A stretch of 64,000 bases of DNA from Escherichia coli (GTDB taxonomy: Bacteria > Pseudomonadota > Gammaproteobacteria > Enterobacterales > Enterobacteriaceae): NCBI RefSeq assembly GCF_051903065.1, contig NZ_CP178438.1. One strand, given 5' to 3'. The position numbers and the translations under genes are program-made. Below are positions 7,283 through 63,176 of the stretch, piece after piece (the stretch's first letter is position 1; each line of letters begins with the position of its first letter). The notes under the pieces are model-generated. The model did no database searches. It worked only from the letters and a program-made list of their open reading frames with translations, and was not told where the DNA came from.

Positions 7283-7489
7283 GTAGATGCTCATTCCATC
7301 TCTTATGTTCGCCTTAGTGCCTCATAAACTCCGGAATGACGCAGAGCCGTTTACGGTGCTTATCGTCCACTGACAGATGTCGCTTATGCCTCATCAGACA
7401 CCATGGACACAACGTTGAGTGAAGCACCCACTTGTTGTCATACAGACCTGTTTTAACGCCTGCTCCGTAGTAAGAGCAGGCGTTTTTTT
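7283..7489 (+). ncRNA. glmZ: Small RNA GlmZ (activator of glmS translation), about 207 nt including its intrinsic terminator
   Basis: No ORF; sequence GTAGATGCTCATTCCATCTCTTATGTTCGCC... matches GlmZ as I recall it; located in the aslA-hemY spacer; ends in hairpin aacgcctgctc/gagcaggcgtt plus T7; CATAAT -10 hexamer at 7271-7276. Confidence 0.8.
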
Positions 7490-8735: not shown

Positions 8736-9965
8736 TTATTCTCCTTGCGGCGCGGCTGCCGGAGTATCAGCTTGCGGTGCAGGTGCAGGTGCAGGTGCAG
8801 GTGCAGGTGCAGGTGCAGGTGCAGGTGCAGGTGCAGGTTTAGCTTCCGTTGTCTCCGCTGCCGGTTGTGCCAGCAGGTTACGCACGCGAGTCTGCATCAG
8901 TTTTTCCAGCATCGCCTGGCTTTGCAGGGTTTCCGGAAGATCCATCGAGATATTTTGCTGGCTTAACTGGTCCACCTCGTCGAGGAACGCTTTGGTGGTG
9001 GCATCATCAGTATCGTAGTAAGCACGTACCCAGGTGGAGACGTTCTCCAGCGCCTGGCGATAAGTCTCTTCCTGATGACGCGGTACAGCTTGTGCTGCGA
9101 CCAGCAGGCGAGAGCGAATATTTTCGCGCAGATAGATATCCTGATTTGGCGCTAACAGCGGTACGGCGGTGTCATCACGACGGCGAATCGTAATGAAGTT
9201 GTCCATAAAGTTCTGCCAGCTTTTTTGCAGATTGATACGCCATTCGCTGATGGAACTGGAAAGCTCTTCACCGTCGGAATCCATCGGCGAACCATCGCTG
9301 TCATTATCGGCCAGACGCAGGTTATCTACCTGATTTGAAAGCTGATTAAGCTTAAGGATGATGCCGTCATAATCCACCTGCGATACTGCAGAAAGGCTGG
9401 CGATATCATCGGTAATTGCCCGACGAACGGTAATCAAACTCGGGTCATTCATATCCGCCAGGCTGGCGTCTGCACTTTTCAGCAACGCTGCAGCGGTCGT
9501 GACGTCCTGATCGCTCCACAGCTTCCGTCCGGCGAGTTTCACCAGAAAATCGGCCTGAGCCAGCAGCCAGGTTTTAGCATCGCTGCCGGAAATGGTGGCG
9601 ACCTTTTGTTGGACTTCATCCAACTGTTTTGCCAGCGTTTCTTGCTGACGATTCGCCTGCTTAAGTTGTGCAGCTTGTTGCTTAATAATGCCTTCCAGCT
9701 CGGCTTTTTGGCTCTCCTGGGCTTTTTGCAATGCCGTCAGTTGGTTAGCCAGGGCATCGCTGGTGGCGGTCTGATTGACGGCCTGTTGTTTACCCCAGCC
9801 ATACAAACCGACGCCTGCCGCCAGAGCAATAGCGATAGCCACCGCACTGAGAATCAATGCGGTATTGTTCTTACTCTTTTTTTCTGTTGCGACAGGTTGT
9901 GACGTGGTGTCCACGGCCTCCCTGGTCTCTTCAACCACGGCGGAGGTTTTTTCTTGTTCCGTCAT
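8736..9965 (-). CDS. hemX: HemX (membrane-anchored protein with coiled-coil region and a C-terminal Pro-Ala repeat), 409 aa as called
   Basis: ORF 2 bp upstream of hemY; single TM; Gln/Ala-rich coiled-coil region; C-terminal (PA)n tract; product length may vary with repeat number. Confidence 0.8.
8776..8838. repeat. Perfect hexanucleotide tandem repeat (GGTGCA/TGCACC), about 10.5 units, encoding the (Pro-Ala)n tract of HemX
   Basis: ggtgcaggtgcaggtgca... read directly from the sequence. Confidence 0.95.
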
Positions 9966-15040: not shown

Positions 15041-15466
15041 TTAACCTACATACCTCGTCCCATTCCAACGCAAGATTGTATCCTCGTCGCATAAAAGGTT
15101 GTGTACGCCATGATTCTTTTCTTTCATCAGGCTGATTTTGCTACAAAAATAATCAATGTTAATTTTGGAGTTATCCGGGGTCATAATACTGCAAGCCATA
15201 GTTGGTGCGTCACTCGCGGTATATCCACAATCGTCTTTCCCGCAGGCAGCGGGAGGCGTGGAGGGTGAATACGTGCAGTTAAGCGTTTCGGAAATGCCAT
15301 CATCGTTAATGTCGAGGGGACGGCTAATCTCATCGCTGTCAGTGCCTAATGTGGTTGCATCCAGGATGACGTTTGGTTTTTGTATCTCGCTTGTGGCCGC
15401 GTAATTGAAGCTGCTTGCGGCCATTATGCCTAGAGCTATGCCAATCCGTAAGGCTATTTTTTGCAT
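15041..15466 (-). CDS. Small secreted cysteine-rich hypothetical protein, 141 aa (island gene A)
   Basis: ATG with GAGGA RBS upstream; N-terminal signal peptide (ALGIMAASSFNYAA); six Cys in the mature part; start overlaps the stop of gene B; AT-rich. Confidence 0.6.
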   Translation of the reverse strand: MQKIALRIGIALGIMAASSFNYAATSEIQKPNVILDATTLGTDSDEISRPLDINDDGISETLNCTYSPSTPPAACGKDDCGYTASDAPTMACSIMTPDNSKINIDYFCSKISLMKEKNHGVHNLLCDEDTILRWNGTRYVG

Positions 15467-16749
15467 CCTGGTTCCTCTGTAATAATCATAATGTCTCTGT
15501 TTTGAACTTCACGCACATTCTCTTCTCTGACACGAGTTTTCGCCGGACAGGGGGATGGCGTAATCCTGACCTCTGTATCGGTCCAGGTATAAACATTGCG
15601 ATCGTCATAAGCGAAGCGATCGTTTTTAATTAGCGGGCCGTTAGTTGGAATAATTTGCACGCTCTTTGACCGTAATTGGCGGATAAAGTAAACATGTTGT
15701 TTGCCGCCATTAAATGAGTTATCAATGACCAGGTCTGGCGAATCCAGCGGAATTATTTCAAGCTGGTCTTCACCAAAAGTCGATAATTTTGTTACATACA
15801 GACGATCTTTATACTGCGCAATATTGCCAGTAATCAGATGAAATTGTTCAGGTTCAATATCCGGTAGGTCTATCCACTTGCTCCACTGACGGTCGGGCGA
15901 GAGCTGTTTACGCCAGCGAACGCGACTTTCCCCCACTTCAAAAGAGACGTCATCATCTACGGGTATCGCTTTGCCAGATAATTGCCCAAAGGGATAACGA
16001 TGCAGACCATTGTTGTCGCGAAAAACCAGCAGTGAATGAGGTATCCAGCGAATTATCTCAAATGAGTCTGCATTCGCCGTAAGGTGAACGCCATTTAAAT
16101 AAATATTCTGCCCACTGCGGATAAGCAGATCATTGGAATACAAATTTCTGTTTACACTCATAAGACGTGGATTAATACCCCACCATCTTTTTTCTAATAC
16201 AGTAACATTACTGCTGCTCCCCTGACGTCGACCGGACAAATAGAGATTTTTACTATCCACCAGCGTGGTAGAGTTACCTTCGATAGCTTTTAGTGTCGCC
16301 AGATCAACACGTGACGCGCCGCTATTACTTTCGGTGCGCTGTCCATCAAAATAGAGGCTATATTTATCGACCGCGAAGCGGCCCATAGCCTGAAAGCTGG
16401 CAATATCGACAGTGGGTATTCCCGGTGGATTGCTAACGATTTTGCCACGCCAGAGAATAACGCGGCCGTCTGTCACCCAGTGGTATTCCTCATTTTTTAT
16501 GCTTATTTCATCGGTGGGTATATAGCCTTCCACTAACTCCCGCTCCCCGGATATATTTGTCACAAGGCGCAAATCGGCTCTGTTCATCTTCGGAAATTGG
16601 GCAATGATTTTCTCATCCTCCCCATAACCTTTACCGTAAGACATGACACCGTGATCATTGTAATAGTCGAACCCTATGGCCTGTACAGCAGGTGTCAGAA
16701 ATGTGTGCCCCAACAGGATGAGTGCAACTGTGATTATTTGACCATTCAT
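15454..16749 (-). CDS. Secreted repeat protein, DKNYY-like family, 431 aa (island gene B)
   Basis: Signal peptide; repeated motifs DKYSLYFDG, SKNLYLSG, GQNIYLNG, ANADSFEII; paralogous to the upstream 502-aa gene; ATGA overlap with that gene's stop. Confidence 0.8.
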   Translation of the reverse strand: MNGQIITVALILLGHTFLTPAVQAIGFDYYNDHGVMSYGKGYGEDEKIIAQFPKMNRADLRLVTNISGERELVEGYIPTDEISIKNEEYHWVTDGRVILWRGKIVSNPPGIPTVDIASFQAMGRFAVDKYSLYFDGQRTESNSGASRVDLATLKAIEGNSTTLVDSKNLYLSGRRQGSSSNVTVLEKRWWGINPRLMSVNRNLYSNDLLIRSGQNIYLNGVHLTANADSFEIIRWIPHSLLVFRDNNGLHRYPFGQLSGKAIPVDDDVSFEVGESRVRWRKQLSPDRQWSKWIDLPDIEPEQFHLITGNIAQYKDRLYVTKLSTFGEDQLEIIPLDSPDLVIDNSFNGGKQHVYFIRQLRSKSVQIIPTNGPLIKNDRFAYDDRNVYTWTDTEVRITPSPCPAKTRVREENVREVQNRDIMIITEEPGCKK

Positions 16750-18254
16750 TTTGTCGCCTCATTGCGCGGGGCAGGAATAAATTCGCCGTCATCGGTAATT
16801 TTTCCGTCCAGATATCCCGTTTTGTAATTTACCCCGTAGCCATATCCCGAATGTTGTTCCTTCCAGATTAAGCGAACTTGTTTCGGATCAGCGGTGCGGT
16901 ATCGCCAGAGCTGCGCGCCATCAAAGCTGTAAACGTAGCGGTTATCGCGGGCATACCATCTGCGCAAAAAGGGATGGTCATTAAGATGGGCTTCGCGTTC
17001 ATCCGGAGAACGGTTATCCAGTAAGATCAGCGGTCCGTCAGATTCAAACACGTGTAAACCGGAATGGTATGGCCACCCTTCGGCACGCGTAAGTAAATAG
17101 CCGTGGCGTTTCCCGGCGTTGAAACGTTTGTTGATAATAAGATTGGGATCATCAAGTTTCACGATCTCCAGCTTGCGGTCACCAGACTCTGTTTCGATGA
17201 TGGTATAAAGCGAGTCCTGATACTGTGCGACAGCATCACTGATGGGGTGAAACTGTTCCGGATCGAGTCCGGGTAATTCTTCCTGTTTACAGTCAGGCCC
17301 CTGACGCCAGAACACTTTCTTTTCCAGCAGAGAAAAATCCAGACAGTGCTTTGTTAAATCTTCATCCCACGCCAGATTTTCCTTGTCGAGGACTTTACGC
17401 TGCAGCCCGTTTTTATCACGCCAGGTCAAGAGTGAGCCGGGCATCCAGCGCACGACGGAAAAAGTGTCCGGGTCGGCATCAAGCTGTTCGCCGTTGATCA
17501 GGATTTTGGTTCTTGTACGAGCCAGGGTATCCCAGGGGCCAAATGGCATAGCCACACAGGGATTAAACGCGGTAGAAAACTTTCCTCTTTGATCCCATGA
17601 CTTTTGTGCCAGCACACGGAAACTCTCGGGGTCAGCGAGGCGATGCCCATCGACATATAAGAAATTAGCGTCACGTAATATCAGCCCCAGTAAGTCAGGA
17701 TCCCAGGGAGGCCGGAATTCCACCTGATGCAGTGTTTTGATATCTACGCTATTTCCCCCGCCATTGTCATCGGTGCGCTTGCCTTCGAAATAGAGACTGT
17801 GTTTATCTGCGGCAAAATCACCCCATGCCTTGAACGAGGCGACATCGACGGGAGGTTTGTCTGGCGGGTTTTGCACAACTTCACCCGCGTAGAGGATATT
17901 GCGGCCATCGCTATGCCAGGAGTAATGAGGATACCAGGCTTGTGCGCCTTCATAGAGGTAGTCGGTTGTTAGATCAGTCAGAGGTGGTTCTTTATTCCAT
18001 TCATCTTGTGTTGTTGGGTCTATTAATAAATTGGGTAAACGGCGCAAACTCTTGTAATTCACGTCAGGTAGAGAAAGATTTGTTTCTTTATAAGGGCGCA
18101 GGTACACCACGCCTTTTCCCTGTTTCTGGTAAATATTATGTTCAGGTGCATCAAGCCGACATCCCCATGCCGACGATAAGAACAATGAACAAGCCAACAA
18201 ACAAACCACATTGCGATAGTGCATAAAGCCATCCTGGCGCGAGGTGTTGATCAC
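16746..18254 (-). CDS. Secreted repeat protein, DKNYY-like family, 502 aa as called (island gene C)
   Basis: GTG at 18254, or ATG at 18224 giving MHYRNVVCLLACSLFLSSAWG... signal peptide; motifs DKHSLYFEG, DANFLYVDG, ADPESFRVL, ADPDTFSVV; similar to gene B (e.g. NPPDKPPVDVASFKAWGDFAADKHSLYFEGKRT vs NPPGIPTVDIASFQAMGRFAVDKYSLYFDGQRT). Confidence 0.8.
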   Translation of the reverse strand: MINTSRQDGFMHYRNVVCLLACSLFLSSAWGCRLDAPEHNIYQKQGKGVVYLRPYKETNLSLPDVNYKSLRRLPNLLIDPTTQDEWNKEPPLTDLTTDYLYEGAQAWYPHYSWHSDGRNILYAGEVVQNPPDKPPVDVASFKAWGDFAADKHSLYFEGKRTDDNGGGNSVDIKTLHQVEFRPPWDPDLLGLILRDANFLYVDGHRLADPESFRVLAQKSWDQRGKFSTAFNPCVAMPFGPWDTLARTRTKILINGEQLDADPDTFSVVRWMPGSLLTWRDKNGLQRKVLDKENLAWDEDLTKHCLDFSLLEKKVFWRQGPDCKQEELPGLDPEQFHPISDAVAQYQDSLYTIIETESGDRKLEIVKLDDPNLIINKRFNAGKRHGYLLTRAEGWPYHSGLHVFESDGPLILLDNRSPDEREAHLNDHPFLRRWYARDNRYVYSFDGAQLWRYRTADPKQVRLIWKEQHSGYGYGVNYKTGYLDGKITDDGEFIPAPRNEATK

Positions 18255-18333
18255 GATACTGCCAGCAGAACATAAATCCTCACACGTAAGCGTAATTCTC
18301 GCGGCAAATCGTCACTTTTCAGAATCCATAAAG
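18163..18333. repeat. Copy 1 of a 171-bp direct repeat (promoter/leader/signal-peptide module), covering the 5' end of gene C
   Basis: About 93% identical to 19245-19415 at a constant offset of 1082 bp (ccccatgccgacgataa...cacttttcaga). Confidence 0.9.
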
Positions 18334-18590
18334 GTCATTGCTATTTTCTGATAGTTGCTGGGGTAAACGTGATGTTTTCATTCACGATATAAATACGAGG
18401 TACTGCGCCATGGTGTGACTGATCACGTTAAAATGTGCCGGGTTGACGCCGGGAAGGGGTTCAACATGCGACTCTGCCCCCGTTGCCTACTTTATTGTCT
18501 TTCGCGAGTTGTACCCATGTTCCACCACTGGTATCTAACATTCTCCACATTATTACGCTTTCTGCCGAATGTGATTTTTATAGAAATCTA

Positions 18591-19145
18591 TCAATTCATT
18601 TTCCCTGTGCCATAAATTTTATCCTTCACATCCTGCCGAACGCGGGTCTTGTACCCCCCGTTGTGAAGATCTTCATACGGAGAAAAAGAATCTTTACTCC
18701 ACCCCAGCAGCACTTTATCGCCAGGCATAAAATGCACATGCAGAAAATCTTCTCCCCATTCTCTTTTGGGGAGAGGTAACGTCATATTCCGTTTCTCCAG
18801 ACGCATTCCAGCATTATACTGTGTACGAGTAGTACTTAATGTCCAGATAACCTCTGCAGTATCCCCACTGACATCACCACAACAGGTTGTTGAACCTCCA
18901 CCATTTGCAAAAGCATTCGCGCCCGCCACGCCGTTAACACTGAATCCCAGTATCGGACGGTCAATTTCACTGTGGATTTCCAGAATCACTCCACCTCTTG
19001 GACCTCCCCATACTGCCTGCCCTATATTCCACAACACGACCAGTACTGGAACGACAATTAACGTCCGCCATACCCAGCGCCCCCAGCGGGCATAACCGCG
19101 CGTAAGCTTTTGGTCAAATTTTTCCAGTTGGGTAAATAGCCCCAT
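18591..19145 (-). CDS. DUF3304-like membrane-anchored protein, 184 aa (island gene D)
   Basis: ATG with AGGGA RBS upstream; N-terminal TM segment (WRTLIVVPVLVVLWNIG); motifs GFSVNGVAGANAFANGGGSTTCCGD and LHVHFMPGDKVLLGW resemble DUF3304 proteins as I recall them. Confidence 0.6.
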   Translation of the reverse strand: MGLFTQLEKFDQKLTRGYARWGRWVWRTLIVVPVLVVLWNIGQAVWGGPRGGVILEIHSEIDRPILGFSVNGVAGANAFANGGGSTTCCGDVSGDTAEVIWTLSTTRTQYNAGMRLEKRNMTLPLPKREWGEDFLHVHFMPGDKVLLGWSKDSFSPYEDLHNGGYKTRVRQDVKDKIYGTGKMN

Positions 19146-25172: not shown

Positions 25173-26090
25173 TTACTTAGCGCACTTCTTCACATCAATA
25201 TTCCAGTTAGCACCAGACGCAACCTGATGTTTCTGCGCGAAATTATCCATATTCAGCGCCACGGAAACATTCAATAAGCTGTTCAGATACACCATCGGCT
25301 GACCTTCCGGCACATCGCCGAAGCTTGCGACATACGGCATTTTCCCTTCGTATTTTTGCTGGGAACCTTCGGAAATGGTTACACACAACGTGTCGTTGAG
25401 TTTGATTCCTGCCTGATTCAGCAACTCGTCGCTGATATTGCTCCAGACGTTGCCGTACTGAATATCGAGAATCGGGATATTGCCCTTCACTTCACCTTTT
25501 GTTGCTTTGGCTTTCTGATAAGAAAGTTCGACAACTTTTGCCGGAAGCTCTGGCCCCACCTGTTCGAACGTGATCGCTCCGGAAGCCAGGCGTGCACCGG
25601 TGTAGGCATACACGTCACGACCGTGGAAGGTATATGACTTTTCGGAACCTTTCAGGCGGTTGGTTTTTTCATCGATTTGCCGGACGCTCTCAATACCCAG
25701 CGATTCCGCCACCAAAGTGAGCGTACCGTTATCCGGTGAAACGAAGTATTGACCGTTTTTGGTTTTCAGCACTACCGATTTACGGTCTGTACCTACACCT
25801 GGATCGACCACGCTAACAAACACCGAACCTTGTGGCCAATAACTGGCGGTCTGATACAGGCGGTAAGCGCCTTCCCAGATGTTATACGGTGGAATTTCGT
25901 GTGTTAAATCAAAGATTTTAAGATTATGGTCAACACCGAATGCGACCCCTTTCATCGCCGAGACGGCACCATCTTTCAGGCTAAAATCAGTTTGTAAAAT
26001 CAAAGCGTTATCCGCATAAGCGGATGATGATCCCAGACACGTTAATAAAAATAACGTTGCGAGCGTTTTTTCATTTTTGTTTCCCTTCAT
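25173..26090 (-). CDS. Signal-peptide-bearing SAM hydroxide adenosyltransferase family protein (DUF62, fluorinase/chlorinase-like), 305 aa
   Basis: N-terminal signal peptide (LATLFLLTCLGSSSAYA); family motifs TDFSLKDGAVSAMKGV, VDPGVGTDRKSV, SPDNGTLTLV, FHGRDVYAYTGARLASG, YGNVWSNI align with fluorinase FlA as I recall it. Confidence 0.75.
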   Translation of the reverse strand: MKGNKNEKTLATLFLLTCLGSSSAYADNALILQTDFSLKDGAVSAMKGVAFGVDHNLKIFDLTHEIPPYNIWEGAYRLYQTASYWPQGSVFVSVVDPGVGTDRKSVVLKTKNGQYFVSPDNGTLTLVAESLGIESVRQIDEKTNRLKGSEKSYTFHGRDVYAYTGARLASGAITFEQVGPELPAKVVELSYQKAKATKGEVKGNIPILDIQYGNVWSNISDELLNQAGIKLNDTLCVTISEGSQQKYEGKMPYVASFGDVPEGQPMVYLNSLLNVSVALNMDNFAQKHQVASGANWNIDVKKCAK

Positions 26091-45487: not shown

Positions 45488-47730
<2,243 letters not shown>

Positions 47731-53275: not shown

Positions 53276-54448
<1,173 letters not shown>

Positions 54449-56638
54449 TTAAGCCGTTTTCAGGTCGCCAACCGGACGGGCTGGCTCAACCGGGGGATAG
54501 TACGGTTCGTTATGACGCGCTTTATTACGCAGACCTTCCGGCACTTCGTACAGCGGGCCGAGGTGCTGATATTGCTGTGCCATATCGAGGTATTTCGCGC
54601 TGCCGAGGGTGTCCAGCCAGCGGAACGCGCCGCCGTGGAACGGAGGGAAGCCCAGGCCGTAGACCAGCGCCATATCCGCTTCTGCCGGAGTGGCGATAAT
54701 GCCTTCTTCCAGACAACGCACCACTTCGTTGACCATCGGGATCATCATGCGGGCGATAATCTCTTCTTCGCTGAAATCGCGCTTCGGCTGGCTCACTTCT
54801 ACTAGCAGGTCGTCAACAGCGGCGTCTTCTTCTTTCTTCGGCTTACCTTTGCTGTCTTCTTTATAACGCCAGAAACCGAGGCCGTTCTTCTGACCAAATC
54901 GGTTGGCATCAAACAGCGCGTCGATGGCATCGCGATAATCTTTCTGCATCCGCTGCGGGAAGCCTGCTGCCATCACCGCCTGGGCGTGATGCGCGGTGTC
55001 AATGCCCACAACGTCCAGCAGATATGCCGGACCCATAGGCCAGCCAAACTGTTTTTCCATCACTTTGTCGATCTTGCGGAAATCCGCGCCGTCGCGCAGC
55101 AACTGGCTGAAACCGGCGAAATACGGGAACAGCACGCGGTTGACGAAGAAGCCGGGGCAATCGTTAACCACAATCGGCGTTTTACCCATCTTGCTCGCCC
55201 AGGCGACGACTTTCGCAATAGTTTCGTCGGAGCTTTTCTCGCCGCGAATAATTTCCACCAACGGCATTCGGTGGACCGGGTTAAAGAAGTGCATCCCGCA
55301 GAAGTTTTCCGGACGTTCCAGCGCGTTGGCCAGTTCGCTGATAGGAATGGTTGAAGTGTTAGACGCCAGCACGGTATCCGGGCGTACTTTCTGCTCGGTT
55401 TCTGCCAGTACGGCTTTTTTCACTTTCGGGTTTTCGACAACCGCTTCTACCACAACATCCACGCGGTCAAACCCGGCGTAGTCGAGCGTTGGGTGGATTG
55501 TAGAGATCACGCCAGCCAGTTTCAGACCATCGATCTTGCCGCGCTCAAGCTGCTTGTTCAGCAGTTTCGCGGCTTCGGTCATGCCGAGGGTTAACGACTT
55601 GTCGTTGATATCTTTCATGACAACCGGCACGCCTTTCCACGCAGACTGGTAAGCGATGCCGCCGCCCATAATGCCTGCGCCCAGCACAGCGGCCTGTTTC
55701 GGGGTTTCAACGTCTTTGGTGAGTTTCTTCGCTTTGCCTTTTACATATTGATCGTTAAGGAATATGCCGACCAGTGCGCGAGCTTCGTTGGTATGCGCCA
55801 GCGGGACAAAACTTTTGTTTTCCAGGTTTAGGGCTTCTTCACGACCAAAACGGGCCGCAGCTTCAATGGTTTTTACTGCGGTGATGGGGGCCGGATAATG
55901 TTTCCCCGCCGTTTGTGCGACCATCCCTTTAGCGATGGTGAAGCTCATGGTAGCTTCAATCTTGCTCAGTTTTAGCGGTTCCAGCTTCGGCTGACGTTTC
56001 GCTTTCCAGTCGAGGTCGCCGTTAATGGCCTGGCGTAAAATCGCCATCGCCCCTTCAATCAGTTTTTCTGCTTTGACTACGCCATCCACCAGACCGATTT
56101 TCAGCGCCTGATCCGCGCCGACATCTTTACCGGCGGCAATGATTTCCAGCGCACTGTCAGCGCCCAGCATACGTGGCATACGTACAGAACCGCCAAAGCC
56201 CGGCATGATGCCCAGTTTGGTTTCCGGCAGACCGATGCGCAGATCTGGCGTCGCCAGACGATAATCGGTCGCCAGCACGCATTCACAGCCACCGCCCAGA
56301 GCGTAACCGTTAACCGCAGCAATGGTCGGCACCGGCAGATCTTCCAGGCGATTAAACACGCTATTGGCAAAGTGCAGCCACTGACTTAACTGTTCTTCAG
56401 GAACGAGGAACAGGGACAAAAATTCGGTGATATCAGCACCGACGATAAAGGCTGCTTTGTTCGAACGCAGCAGCAGCCCTTTTAGATCTGATTGCTGTTC
56501 CAGCACGCCGATGGCCTCGCCGAGGCTGGCGACGGTCGCAGTGTCGAGTTTATTAACTGAACCTGGGGCATCAAATACCAGTTCGGCAATGCCATCTTCC
56601 AGCCAGTCAAGGTACAGGGTGTCGCCTTTGTAAAGCAT
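54449..56638 (-). CDS. fadB: Fatty-acid oxidation complex alpha subunit (enoyl-CoA hydratase/3-hydroxyacyl-CoA dehydrogenase), 729 aa
   Basis: Start trimmed to ATG at 56638 ([16 protein letters not shown]) with AGGAG RBS; the track ORF extends 42 codons upstream across the FadR operator. Confidence 0.9.
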
Positions 56639-56663
56639 GTCAGTCTCCTGAATCCGCAAGGTG

Positions 56664-56680
56664 ATCTGGTCGTACCAGAT
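56664..56680. promoter_or_regulatory. FadR operator of the fadBA promoter
   Basis: Palindrome atctggtcgtaccagat, which matches the fadB FadR operator ATCTGGTACGACCAGAT as I recall it (reverse complement), 26 bp upstream of the fadB start. Confidence 0.7.
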
Positions 56681-56827
56681 GAGTCGAAGTGTGTATTTTG
56701 TGTTAAAAATATGCAAATAAAAGATTAAAGAAATGCCAATCTGATCACGCTCGGCAGAAATCACGCTCTGGATGAACGATGTGCTAAGATGCGGAGACTT
56801 AAGGTCAAAAAAACAGAAGGGTAAAAA

Positions 56828-58159
56828 ATGGAATCACTGGCCTCGCTTTATAAAAATCATATAGTTACCTTACAGGAACGGACTCGCGATGCGCTGGCGC
56901 GCTTCAAGCTGGATGCGTTACTTATTCACTCCGGCGAACTGTTCAACGTTTTTCTCGACGATCATCCCTATCCGTTTAAAGTGAACCCGCAATTCAAAGC
57001 GTGGGTGCCGGTAACTCAGGTACCAAACTGCTGGTTGCTGGTGGATGGCGTGAACAAGCCGAAACTGTGGTTTTATCTGCCGGTTGATTACTGGCACAAC
57101 GTCGAACCGCTGCCGACCTCCTTCTGGACTGAAGATGTAGAAGTGATCGCGCTGCCGAAAGCCGATGGCATTGGTAGCCTGCTGCCTGCTGCGCGCGGCA
57201 ATATCGGTTATATCGGTCCGGTGCCGGAACGTGCGCTGCAACTGGGTATTGAGGCCAGCAATATCAACCCGAAAGGGGTTATCGACTACCTGCATTACTA
57301 CCGCTCCTTCAAAACCGAGTACGAACTGGCCTGTATGCGTGAAGCGCAGAAAATGGCGGTCAACGGTCATCGCGCGGCAGAAGAAGCGTTCCGTTCTGGC
57401 ATGAGCGAGTTCGATATCAACATTGCCTATCTGACCGCGACCGGTCATCGTGATACCGACGTACCTTACAGCAACATTGTGGCACTCAACGAACACGCTG
57501 CGGTGCTGCATTACACCAAACTGGATCATCAGGCGCCGGAAGAGATGCGCAGCTTCCTGCTGGATGCCGGGGCCGAATATAACGGCTATGCCGCTGACCT
57601 GACCCGTACCTGGTCGGCAAAAAGTGACAACGATTACGCACAGCTGGTGAAAGACGTAAATGATGAACAACTGGCGCTGATCGCGACCATGAAAGCTGGC
57701 GTTAGCTATGTGGATTACCACATCCAGTTCCATCAGCGCATCGCCAAATTGCTGCGTAAACATCAAATCATCACCGATATGAGTGAAGAAGCGATGGTCG
57801 AAAACGATCTCACCGGACCGTTTATGCCGCACGGTATCGGCCATCCGCTGGGCCTGCAGGTGCATGACGTCGCCGGTTTTATGCAGGATGATAGCGGTAC
57901 GCACCTCGCGGCACCGGCAAAATATCCGTACCTGCGCTGCACCCGTATTCTCCAGCCGGGCATGGTGTTAACCATCGAACCGGGTATCTACTTCATTGAA
58001 TCGCTACTGGCACCGTGGCGTGAAGGGCAGTTCAGCAAGCACTTCAACTGGCAGAAAATTGAAGCACTGAAACCGTTCGGCGGCATTCGTATCGAAGACA
58101 ACGTGGTGATCCACGAAAATAACGTGGAAAACATGACCCGGGATCTGAAACTGGCGTGA
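56828..58159 (+). CDS. pepQ: Xaa-Pro dipeptidase (prolidase), 443 aa
   Basis: M24 metallopeptidase metal-ligand motifs; length matches. Confidence 0.9.
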
Positions 58160-63002: not shown

Positions 63003-63176
63003 TCTCTGTAGTGATTAAATAAAAAATACTTCAGAGTGTACCTGCAAAGGTTCACTGCGAAGTTTTGCTCTTTAAAAATCTGGATCAAGCTGAAAATTGA
63101 AACACTGAACAACGAGAGTTGTTCGTGAGTCTCTCAAATTTTCGCAACTCTGAAGTGAAACATCTTCGGGTTGTGA

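Follow-up and report, generated by a model that had tools for sequence, protein, structure and literature searches.

The 64,000-nt stretch of Escherichia coli chromosome analyzed here (contig NZ_CP178438.1, hereafter the window) raises a question about the gene fadB: where does it begin, and what is the 17-bp inverted repeat that lies shortly upstream of its usual ATG and inside the longest open reading frame (ORF)? The mechanically called ORF spans 54449..56764 on the minus strand (771 amino acids, GTG start), and the translation of 56764–56560 places an in-frame ATG at 56638, exactly 42 codons inside it. The repeat, at 56664–56680, falls within these 42 codons, and all coordinates and sequences that a preliminary description had given were confirmed. 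We found that the repeat is the experimentally characterized fadB FadR operator, already known and of textbook standing, and that the 42-codon extension is promoter DNA and non-coding. Neither the operator nor the start correction, which agrees with existing annotation, is biologically new, as this is one of the best-characterized repressor sites of E. coli. What the case illustrates is that roughly one gene in three of the window comes out too long in a mechanical ORF list, and that known operator and promoter elements offer a means of trimming such ORFs.

The 17-bp operator upstream of fadB

56664..56680, minus strand: FadR operator OB, ATCTGGTACGACCAGAT, identified by identity to crystallized and gel-shifted DNA and by its presence at 83 orthologous loci

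The plus strand at 56664–56680 reads ATCTGGTCGTACCAGAT, and in the fadB sense (minus strand) the site ATCTGGTACGACCAGAT stands in the context ...TTATTTGCATATTTTTAACACAAAATACACACTTCGACTC ATCTGGTACGACCAGAT CACCTTGCGGATTCAGGAGACTGAC ATG CTT TAC AAA GGC.... Its two arms of 7 nt each (ATCTGGT and ACCAGAT) are 100% complementary and enclose an asymmetric center of 3 nt. The element, which had been called a palindrome, is thus a near-palindrome: the description holds for the arms, and a perfect palindrome is excluded by the asymmetric center. When up to three mismatches were allowed, the 17-mer had a single match in the window, at 56664–56680, where 0.10 matches were expected from window shuffles; by our own arithmetic, an exact 17-mer is expected ~7.5e-6 times in a 128-kb two-strand sequence. 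The site corresponds to the operator OB at fadBA of E. coli K-12, which was reportedly described by DiRusso et al. in 1992; PDB 1H9T and 1HW2 are FadR–DNA structures.

The assignment to FadR, which the preliminary description had made, was borne out by exact identity to DNA used in published experiments. The 19-mer of the FadR–DNA co-crystal, CATCTGGTACGACCAGATC, in which base-specific contacts are made to the TGG of each half-site (PMC3592433), is identical to window 56681–56663 on the minus strand. Likewise, the 37-nt fadBA gel-shift probe ACTTCGACTCATCTGGTACGACCAGATCACCTTGCGG, which was bound by wild-type FadR and not by the W60G mutant (PMC4259882), is identical to window 56690–56654. A search of the window with the FadR consensus aaCTGGTCnGACC(T/A)Gtt (PMC9329746) and up to three mismatches returned the fadB operator as the sole match; of its three mismatches, one affects the central C and the others the second base from each end, and the CTGGT and ACC cores are intact.

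The operator shares the CTGGT...ACC core and the 17-bp length with the other FadR sites (fadL, fadD, fadE, fadIJ, fadH, fadM, fabA, and fabB), and it overlaps the -10/+1 region as do the sites at other repressed genes (PMC9329746), but it is far more symmetric than they are and carries the three mismatches to the consensus. With operators of the GntR family (TNG-Nx-CNA, for example those of AraR), it shares a core that takes the form TGGT-N3-ACCA, as is typical for the FadR subfamily (PMC3592433); what marks it as a site of FadR are the bases at the outer ends of the arms, ATC...GAT, and its location at a fad gene.

To see how widely the arrangement occurs, one genome per species was scanned for the exact 17-mer, which gave at least 120 loci, and 83 of those listed encode the FadB N-terminus. 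In all 83 of these, from Escherichia to Providencia and Dickeya, the operator lies 23–28 nt upstream of the fadB ATG. It is in the E. coli orientation at 68 loci; at the other 15, the central triplet is inverted (CGT for ACG in the fadB sense), with the arms and the position kept, and these loci come from more distant genera (Serratia, Providencia, Dickeya, Brenneria, Moellerella, Symbiopectobacterium, and others).

The same exact ATCTGGTACGACCAGAT was also seen in several Phascolarctobacterium assemblies (four listed loci), where the surroundings encode no FadB N-terminus. In the whole collection, chance alone would give about 35 matches to a 17-mer, but the occurrence of four in this one genus suggests a conserved sequence there.

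Transcription and translation starts of fadB

54449..56638, minus strand: fadB coding sequence, 729 amino acids plus stop, start ATG 56638–56636, placed by RefSeq WP_000965909.1, PDB alignments, and conservation of the ATG in orthologs
56645..56649, minus strand: Shine-Dalgarno sequence AGGAG, 6 nt upstream of the ATG
56680, minus strand: deduced fadBA +1, from the position given in PMC3460868; it gives a 5′ untranslated region (UTR) of 42 nt and fits the conserved -35 and -10
56688..56693, minus strand: -10 element CACACT, positioned from the deduced +1; 3 of 6 matches to TATAAT, with the A at position 2 and the T at position 6 kept
56698..56716, minus strand: putative FIS site TTGCATATTTTTAACACAA, which includes the TTAACA block (PMC3460868); TTAACA is at least 90% conserved
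56711..56716, minus strand: -35 element TTGCAT, 17 bp from the -10
56639..56764, minus strand: spurious 42-codon extension, corresponding to the fadBA promoter and 5′ UTR, as judged from G+C content, ortholog ORFs, and conservation blocks

The preliminary description had taken the ATG at 56638, with its AGGAG, as the codon that yields the canonical N-terminus, and this was supported. The RefSeq fadB start (WP_000965909.1, 729 amino acids, in NZ_CP083585.1) corresponds to window 56638. In PDB 6TNM, which is E. coli FadB behind a 14-residue tag, residues 15–743 equal residues 1–729 of the query, and in PDB 1WDK, FadB of Pseudomonas fragi, residues 1–714 align with query residues 1–714; residues upstream of M1 are needed by none of the homologues examined. 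The alignment of orthologous N-termini, which had been proposed as a check, gave the same answer from residue 1 of 1WDK and from the listed loci: ATG aligns with the first codon of the E. coli gene in 83 of 83, followed by the pattern M-L/I-Y-K/Q, with GGAG before the ATG, and this GGAG is at least 90% conserved at its position across the 83 distinct upstream sequences. An N-terminal sequence obtained by Edman degradation is said to have appeared in papers of the early 1990s.

It had further been claimed that the operator fixes the fadB start. The start itself stands, but the presence of an operator within an ORF does not alone fix it; a +1 at or next to the operator does, since it leaves GTG 56764 off the fadBp transcript (PMC3460868, PMC9329746). 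The +1 was obtained as follows. In the fadBA promoter, TTGCATATTTTTAACACAA was assigned to positions -36 to -18 and proposed as a putative FIS site (PMC3460868). It is found at window 56716–56698 on the minus strand, so that +1 would be 56680, the A with which the operator begins. This position agrees with the general description, in a 2022 review, of FadR sites, including that of fadBA, as overlapping the transcription start and blocking RNA polymerase until acyl-CoA frees FadR (PMC9329746).

The promoter elements that accompany this +1 recur across the orthologs. TTGCAT or TTGCAA is found at equal offset at 60 of the 83 listed loci and is shifted by 1–2 nt in most others (TTTGCA is at least 90% conserved), while CACACT is found at equal offset at 59 of the 83 (CACAC, at least 90%). 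In the window, the operator begins 7 nt past CACACT and 36 nt past the start of TTGCAT.

Two further blocks of the promoter are conserved, namely TTAACA (56698–56706, minus strand), in the spacer that separates the -35 from the -10, and TTTAA (56724–56729, minus strand), upstream of the -35. On the opposite strand, TTAACA reads TGTTAA, which is one half of the ArcA box.

With +1 at 56680, the repeat would form the first 17 nt of the fadBA mRNA, where a stem of 7 bp with a 3-nt loop is possible, and one may ask whether it serves mainly as a 5′-terminal hairpin for stability or translation, with FadR secondary. The inverted triplet with kept arms in distant genera fits a DNA dyad and a hairpin alike. 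However, the 5′ UTR and first codons fold unremarkably (z = -1.19; an equal or better fold was obtained for 27 of 200 shuffles), the hairpin is absent from the minimum-energy structure, and the contacts of FadR to the TGG of each half-site were established by crystallography (PMC3592433). On the strength of the unremarkable fold, the hairpin was rejected as the primary function of the repeat, and we regard it as very unlikely.

The nature of the extension bears on a second alternative, a 771-amino-acid FadB isoform with GTG 56764 as its start codon, made from a longer transcript whose 5′ end might lie, for instance, in the pepQ leader or past it. In E. coli, E. albertii, E. whittamii, and Citrobacter sedlakii, the 66 codons that precede the ATG are indeed free of stops, and a 42-codon extension recurs at 7 listed loci. 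Against this, the G+C content of the extension is 0.405, compared to 0.552 in fadB, and no Shine-Dalgarno sequence precedes the GTG (CCAGAGC). Among the 68 loci in the E. coli orientation, the maximal ORF has no extension at all at 53 and starts upstream of the operator at 13, and the operator-to-ATG distance takes the values 24, 25, 26, 27, and 28 nt, which means that indels of 1–2 nt, not multiples of three, have accumulated between genera. Conservation upstream of the ATG is confined to blocks (GTGATC, GCA, TTTGCA, TTAACA, CACAC, the operator, and GGAGAC) split by free-running sequence, and downstream of the ATG it turns to third-position variation. These indels, the mostly missing extension in orthologs, and the block-wise conservation together indicate that the extension is non-coding. 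The conserved -35, -10, and operator all lie within it, both RefSeq and the solved structure have FadB begin at M1, the P. fragi protein starts at the aligned residue, and the GTG lies off the deduced transcript; we regard a long isoform as extremely improbable. Equally improbable is translation from the TTG at 56659–56657, 7 codons upstream of the ATG, which is in frame and on the deduced transcript but directly follows the operator and so has no Shine-Dalgarno sequence, in a stretch between operator and GGAG that has indels and is only moderately conserved, while AGGAG is ideally spaced for ATG 56638.

The account that we favor is one of a promoter and its operator read through by a chance open frame. 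A weak sigma-70 promoter (TTGCAT, 17 bp, CACACT) would initiate at or adjoining 56680 on the minus strand, and a FadR dimer on the 17-bp operator would block RNA polymerase until long-chain acyl-CoA frees it, whereupon fadBA would be transcribed, as the literature describes. Translation of FadB begins at ATG 56638, with AGGAG six bases upstream, and GTG 56764, ~84 nt upstream of +1, would be absent from the fadBp transcript, its frame merely lacking a stop by chance. Taken as a whole, with the fadBA promoter and FadR operator, the start at ATG 56638, and an extension that is not protein, we consider this account close to certain. The identity to bound DNA, the N-terminus, and the conservation pattern come from the present analysis; the binding by FadR, the release by acyl-CoA, and the +1 come from the literature, and the fadR gene lies outside the window.

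Several points weigh against this account. The comparison to FadR matrices, which had been suggested as a check, was not decisive: with matrices built from six other E. coli sites (primer table of PMC4259882, fadB left out), the site ranked first when a left-half dyad was used, fifth with the symmetrized matrix, and 15th of 127,968 with the unsymmetrized one. Out of 100 simulated windows, 6 attained the left-half-dyad score, and scores like those of the site are common in null windows; a matrix of six sites is too small to discriminate. The site scores only moderately because it is far more symmetric than the six, with ATCTGGT in both arms, and has its three mismatches to the consensus. The identification rests on the identity with tested DNA and on conservation. 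The orthologous loci were themselves ascertained by the exact operator, which means that they show the breadth of the arrangement and not the rate at which the operator evolves. The +1 at 56680 is literature-derived, from one sentence of PMC3460868 and a general statement in a review, and the genome-wide start-site supplements of PMC3415461 and PMC4782308 list neither fadB nor any coordinate close to the start expected here, possibly owing to low expression or to truncated files. Finally, a consensus sigma-70 scan of 56500–56950 found no promoter; as this weak promoter agrees with the consensus at just 6 of 12 positions, the result reflects a limit of the scan and is no argument against the promoter.

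A CRP-like motif upstream of the -35 element

56734..56749, minus strand: CRP-like motif CGTGATCAGATTGGCA, centered at 56741.5, ~-61.5 from the deduced +1

The conserved GTGATC and GCA blocks in the extension belong to a motif of the form (T/C)GTGATC-N6-nnGCA. Its position is rigid: in 82 of 84 fadB upstream regions, the distance from the start of GTGAYC to the downstream TTGCA of the -35 is exactly 32 nt, and the six bases between vary freely. The left half is TGTGA at 33 listed loci, with TGTGATC occurring in many genera, and the right half ends in CA at 59 listed loci. The E. coli copy, CGTGA-N6-TGGCA, has 7 of 10 matches to TGTGA-N6-TCACA, and its right half is weak (~3 of 5 to TCACA).

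Expression of fadBA is lower in a crp mutant, and the papers that report this identified no CRP site and suggested an indirect route via FIS (PMC3460868, PMC9329746). We searched the literature for reports of a CRP site at fadBA without finding one, and the papers on PdhR and ArcA contain nothing specific to it. From its conservation and position, the motif at 56749–56734 on the minus strand may be a so far unrecognized class I cyclic AMP (cAMP)–CRP site, a possibility that we take seriously while leaning slightly against it. Like the class I CRP promoters such as lac, fadBA has a motif centered at -61.5 from the deduced +1, with a CRP left half and a rigid spacing to the -35, along with the drop in the crp mutant; it differs in the weak right half and in the indirect effect through FIS that the papers propose. 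If the reading were true, cAMP–CRP would activate fadBA directly rather than through FIS, which would settle a small open point.

Gene order, strain comparison, and other features of the window

53276..54439, minus strand: fadA, second gene of the fadBA operon (RefSeq annotation)
56828..58159, plus strand: pepQ, encoding the Xaa-Pro dipeptidase, divergent from fadB (RefSeq annotation and ORF list)

The fadB–pepQ intergenic region of this chromosome is 189 bp long. A 701-bp region of the locus was matched in 5,425 of 5,426 complete E. coli genomes. Among them, NZ_CP083585.1, from which the RefSeq layout of fadB, fadA, and pepQ was taken, is 100% identical to the window across the 701 bp and colinear with it from ~8,861 to 64,000, with 9 mismatches. 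K-12 MG1655 has the same gene layout at the fadB locus (pepQ divergent, then fadB, then fadA). Its fadBA promoter shares with the window the 17-bp operator, the flanks of the 37-nt probe, the -35, the -10, the ribosome binding site, and the start codon, and differs by two single intergenic bases, at 56718 and 56738, that hit no known element; the second falls in the right half of the CRP-like motif. As both differences spare the operator, the two promoter hexamers, and the ribosome binding site, experiments done in K-12 carry over to the window.

The preliminary description had stated that the same over-extension affects uvrD, corA, yigL, ysgA, udp, tatA, tatD, and fre. The mechanical ORFs of all eight proved longer than the RefSeq genes of NZ_CP083585.1, by 62 codons for uvrD, 42 for yigL, 22 for ysgA, 14 for tatA, 11 for fre, 5 for corA, 4 for tatD, and 2 for udp. 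Overall, the mechanical ORF was longer than the annotated gene for 20 of the 56 genes compared; five of the 56 lie left of ~8,790, where the register with NZ_CP083585.1 is lost, and all eight named genes are in the valid part. The over-extension stems from the "first start after a stop" rule and is not biological. The loss of register itself, at ~8790–8861 in hemX, indicates an insertion or deletion in that gene.

Two other places in the window may be strain-variable. Between cyaY and lptM, at ~15041–19145, lie genes for a DUF3304-domain protein and three hypothetical proteins, which may form a strain-variable island; these four genes are not known to occur at that position in K-12. Between yigE and uvrD, at 25173–26090 on the minus strand, lies a gene annotated as a member of the S-adenosylmethionine (SAM) hydrolase/SAM-dependent halogenase family, which may also vary between strains.

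An Rfam scan of the whole window gave no match in the fadB–pepQ region. Above the gathering score, it returned Erse, a small RNA located where ubiJ meets ubiB, and GlmZ (45842–46093 and 7283–7489, both on the plus strand); the window also contains StyR-44 at 63070–63169, a ribosomal RNA operon, from 61198, and transfer RNA genes.

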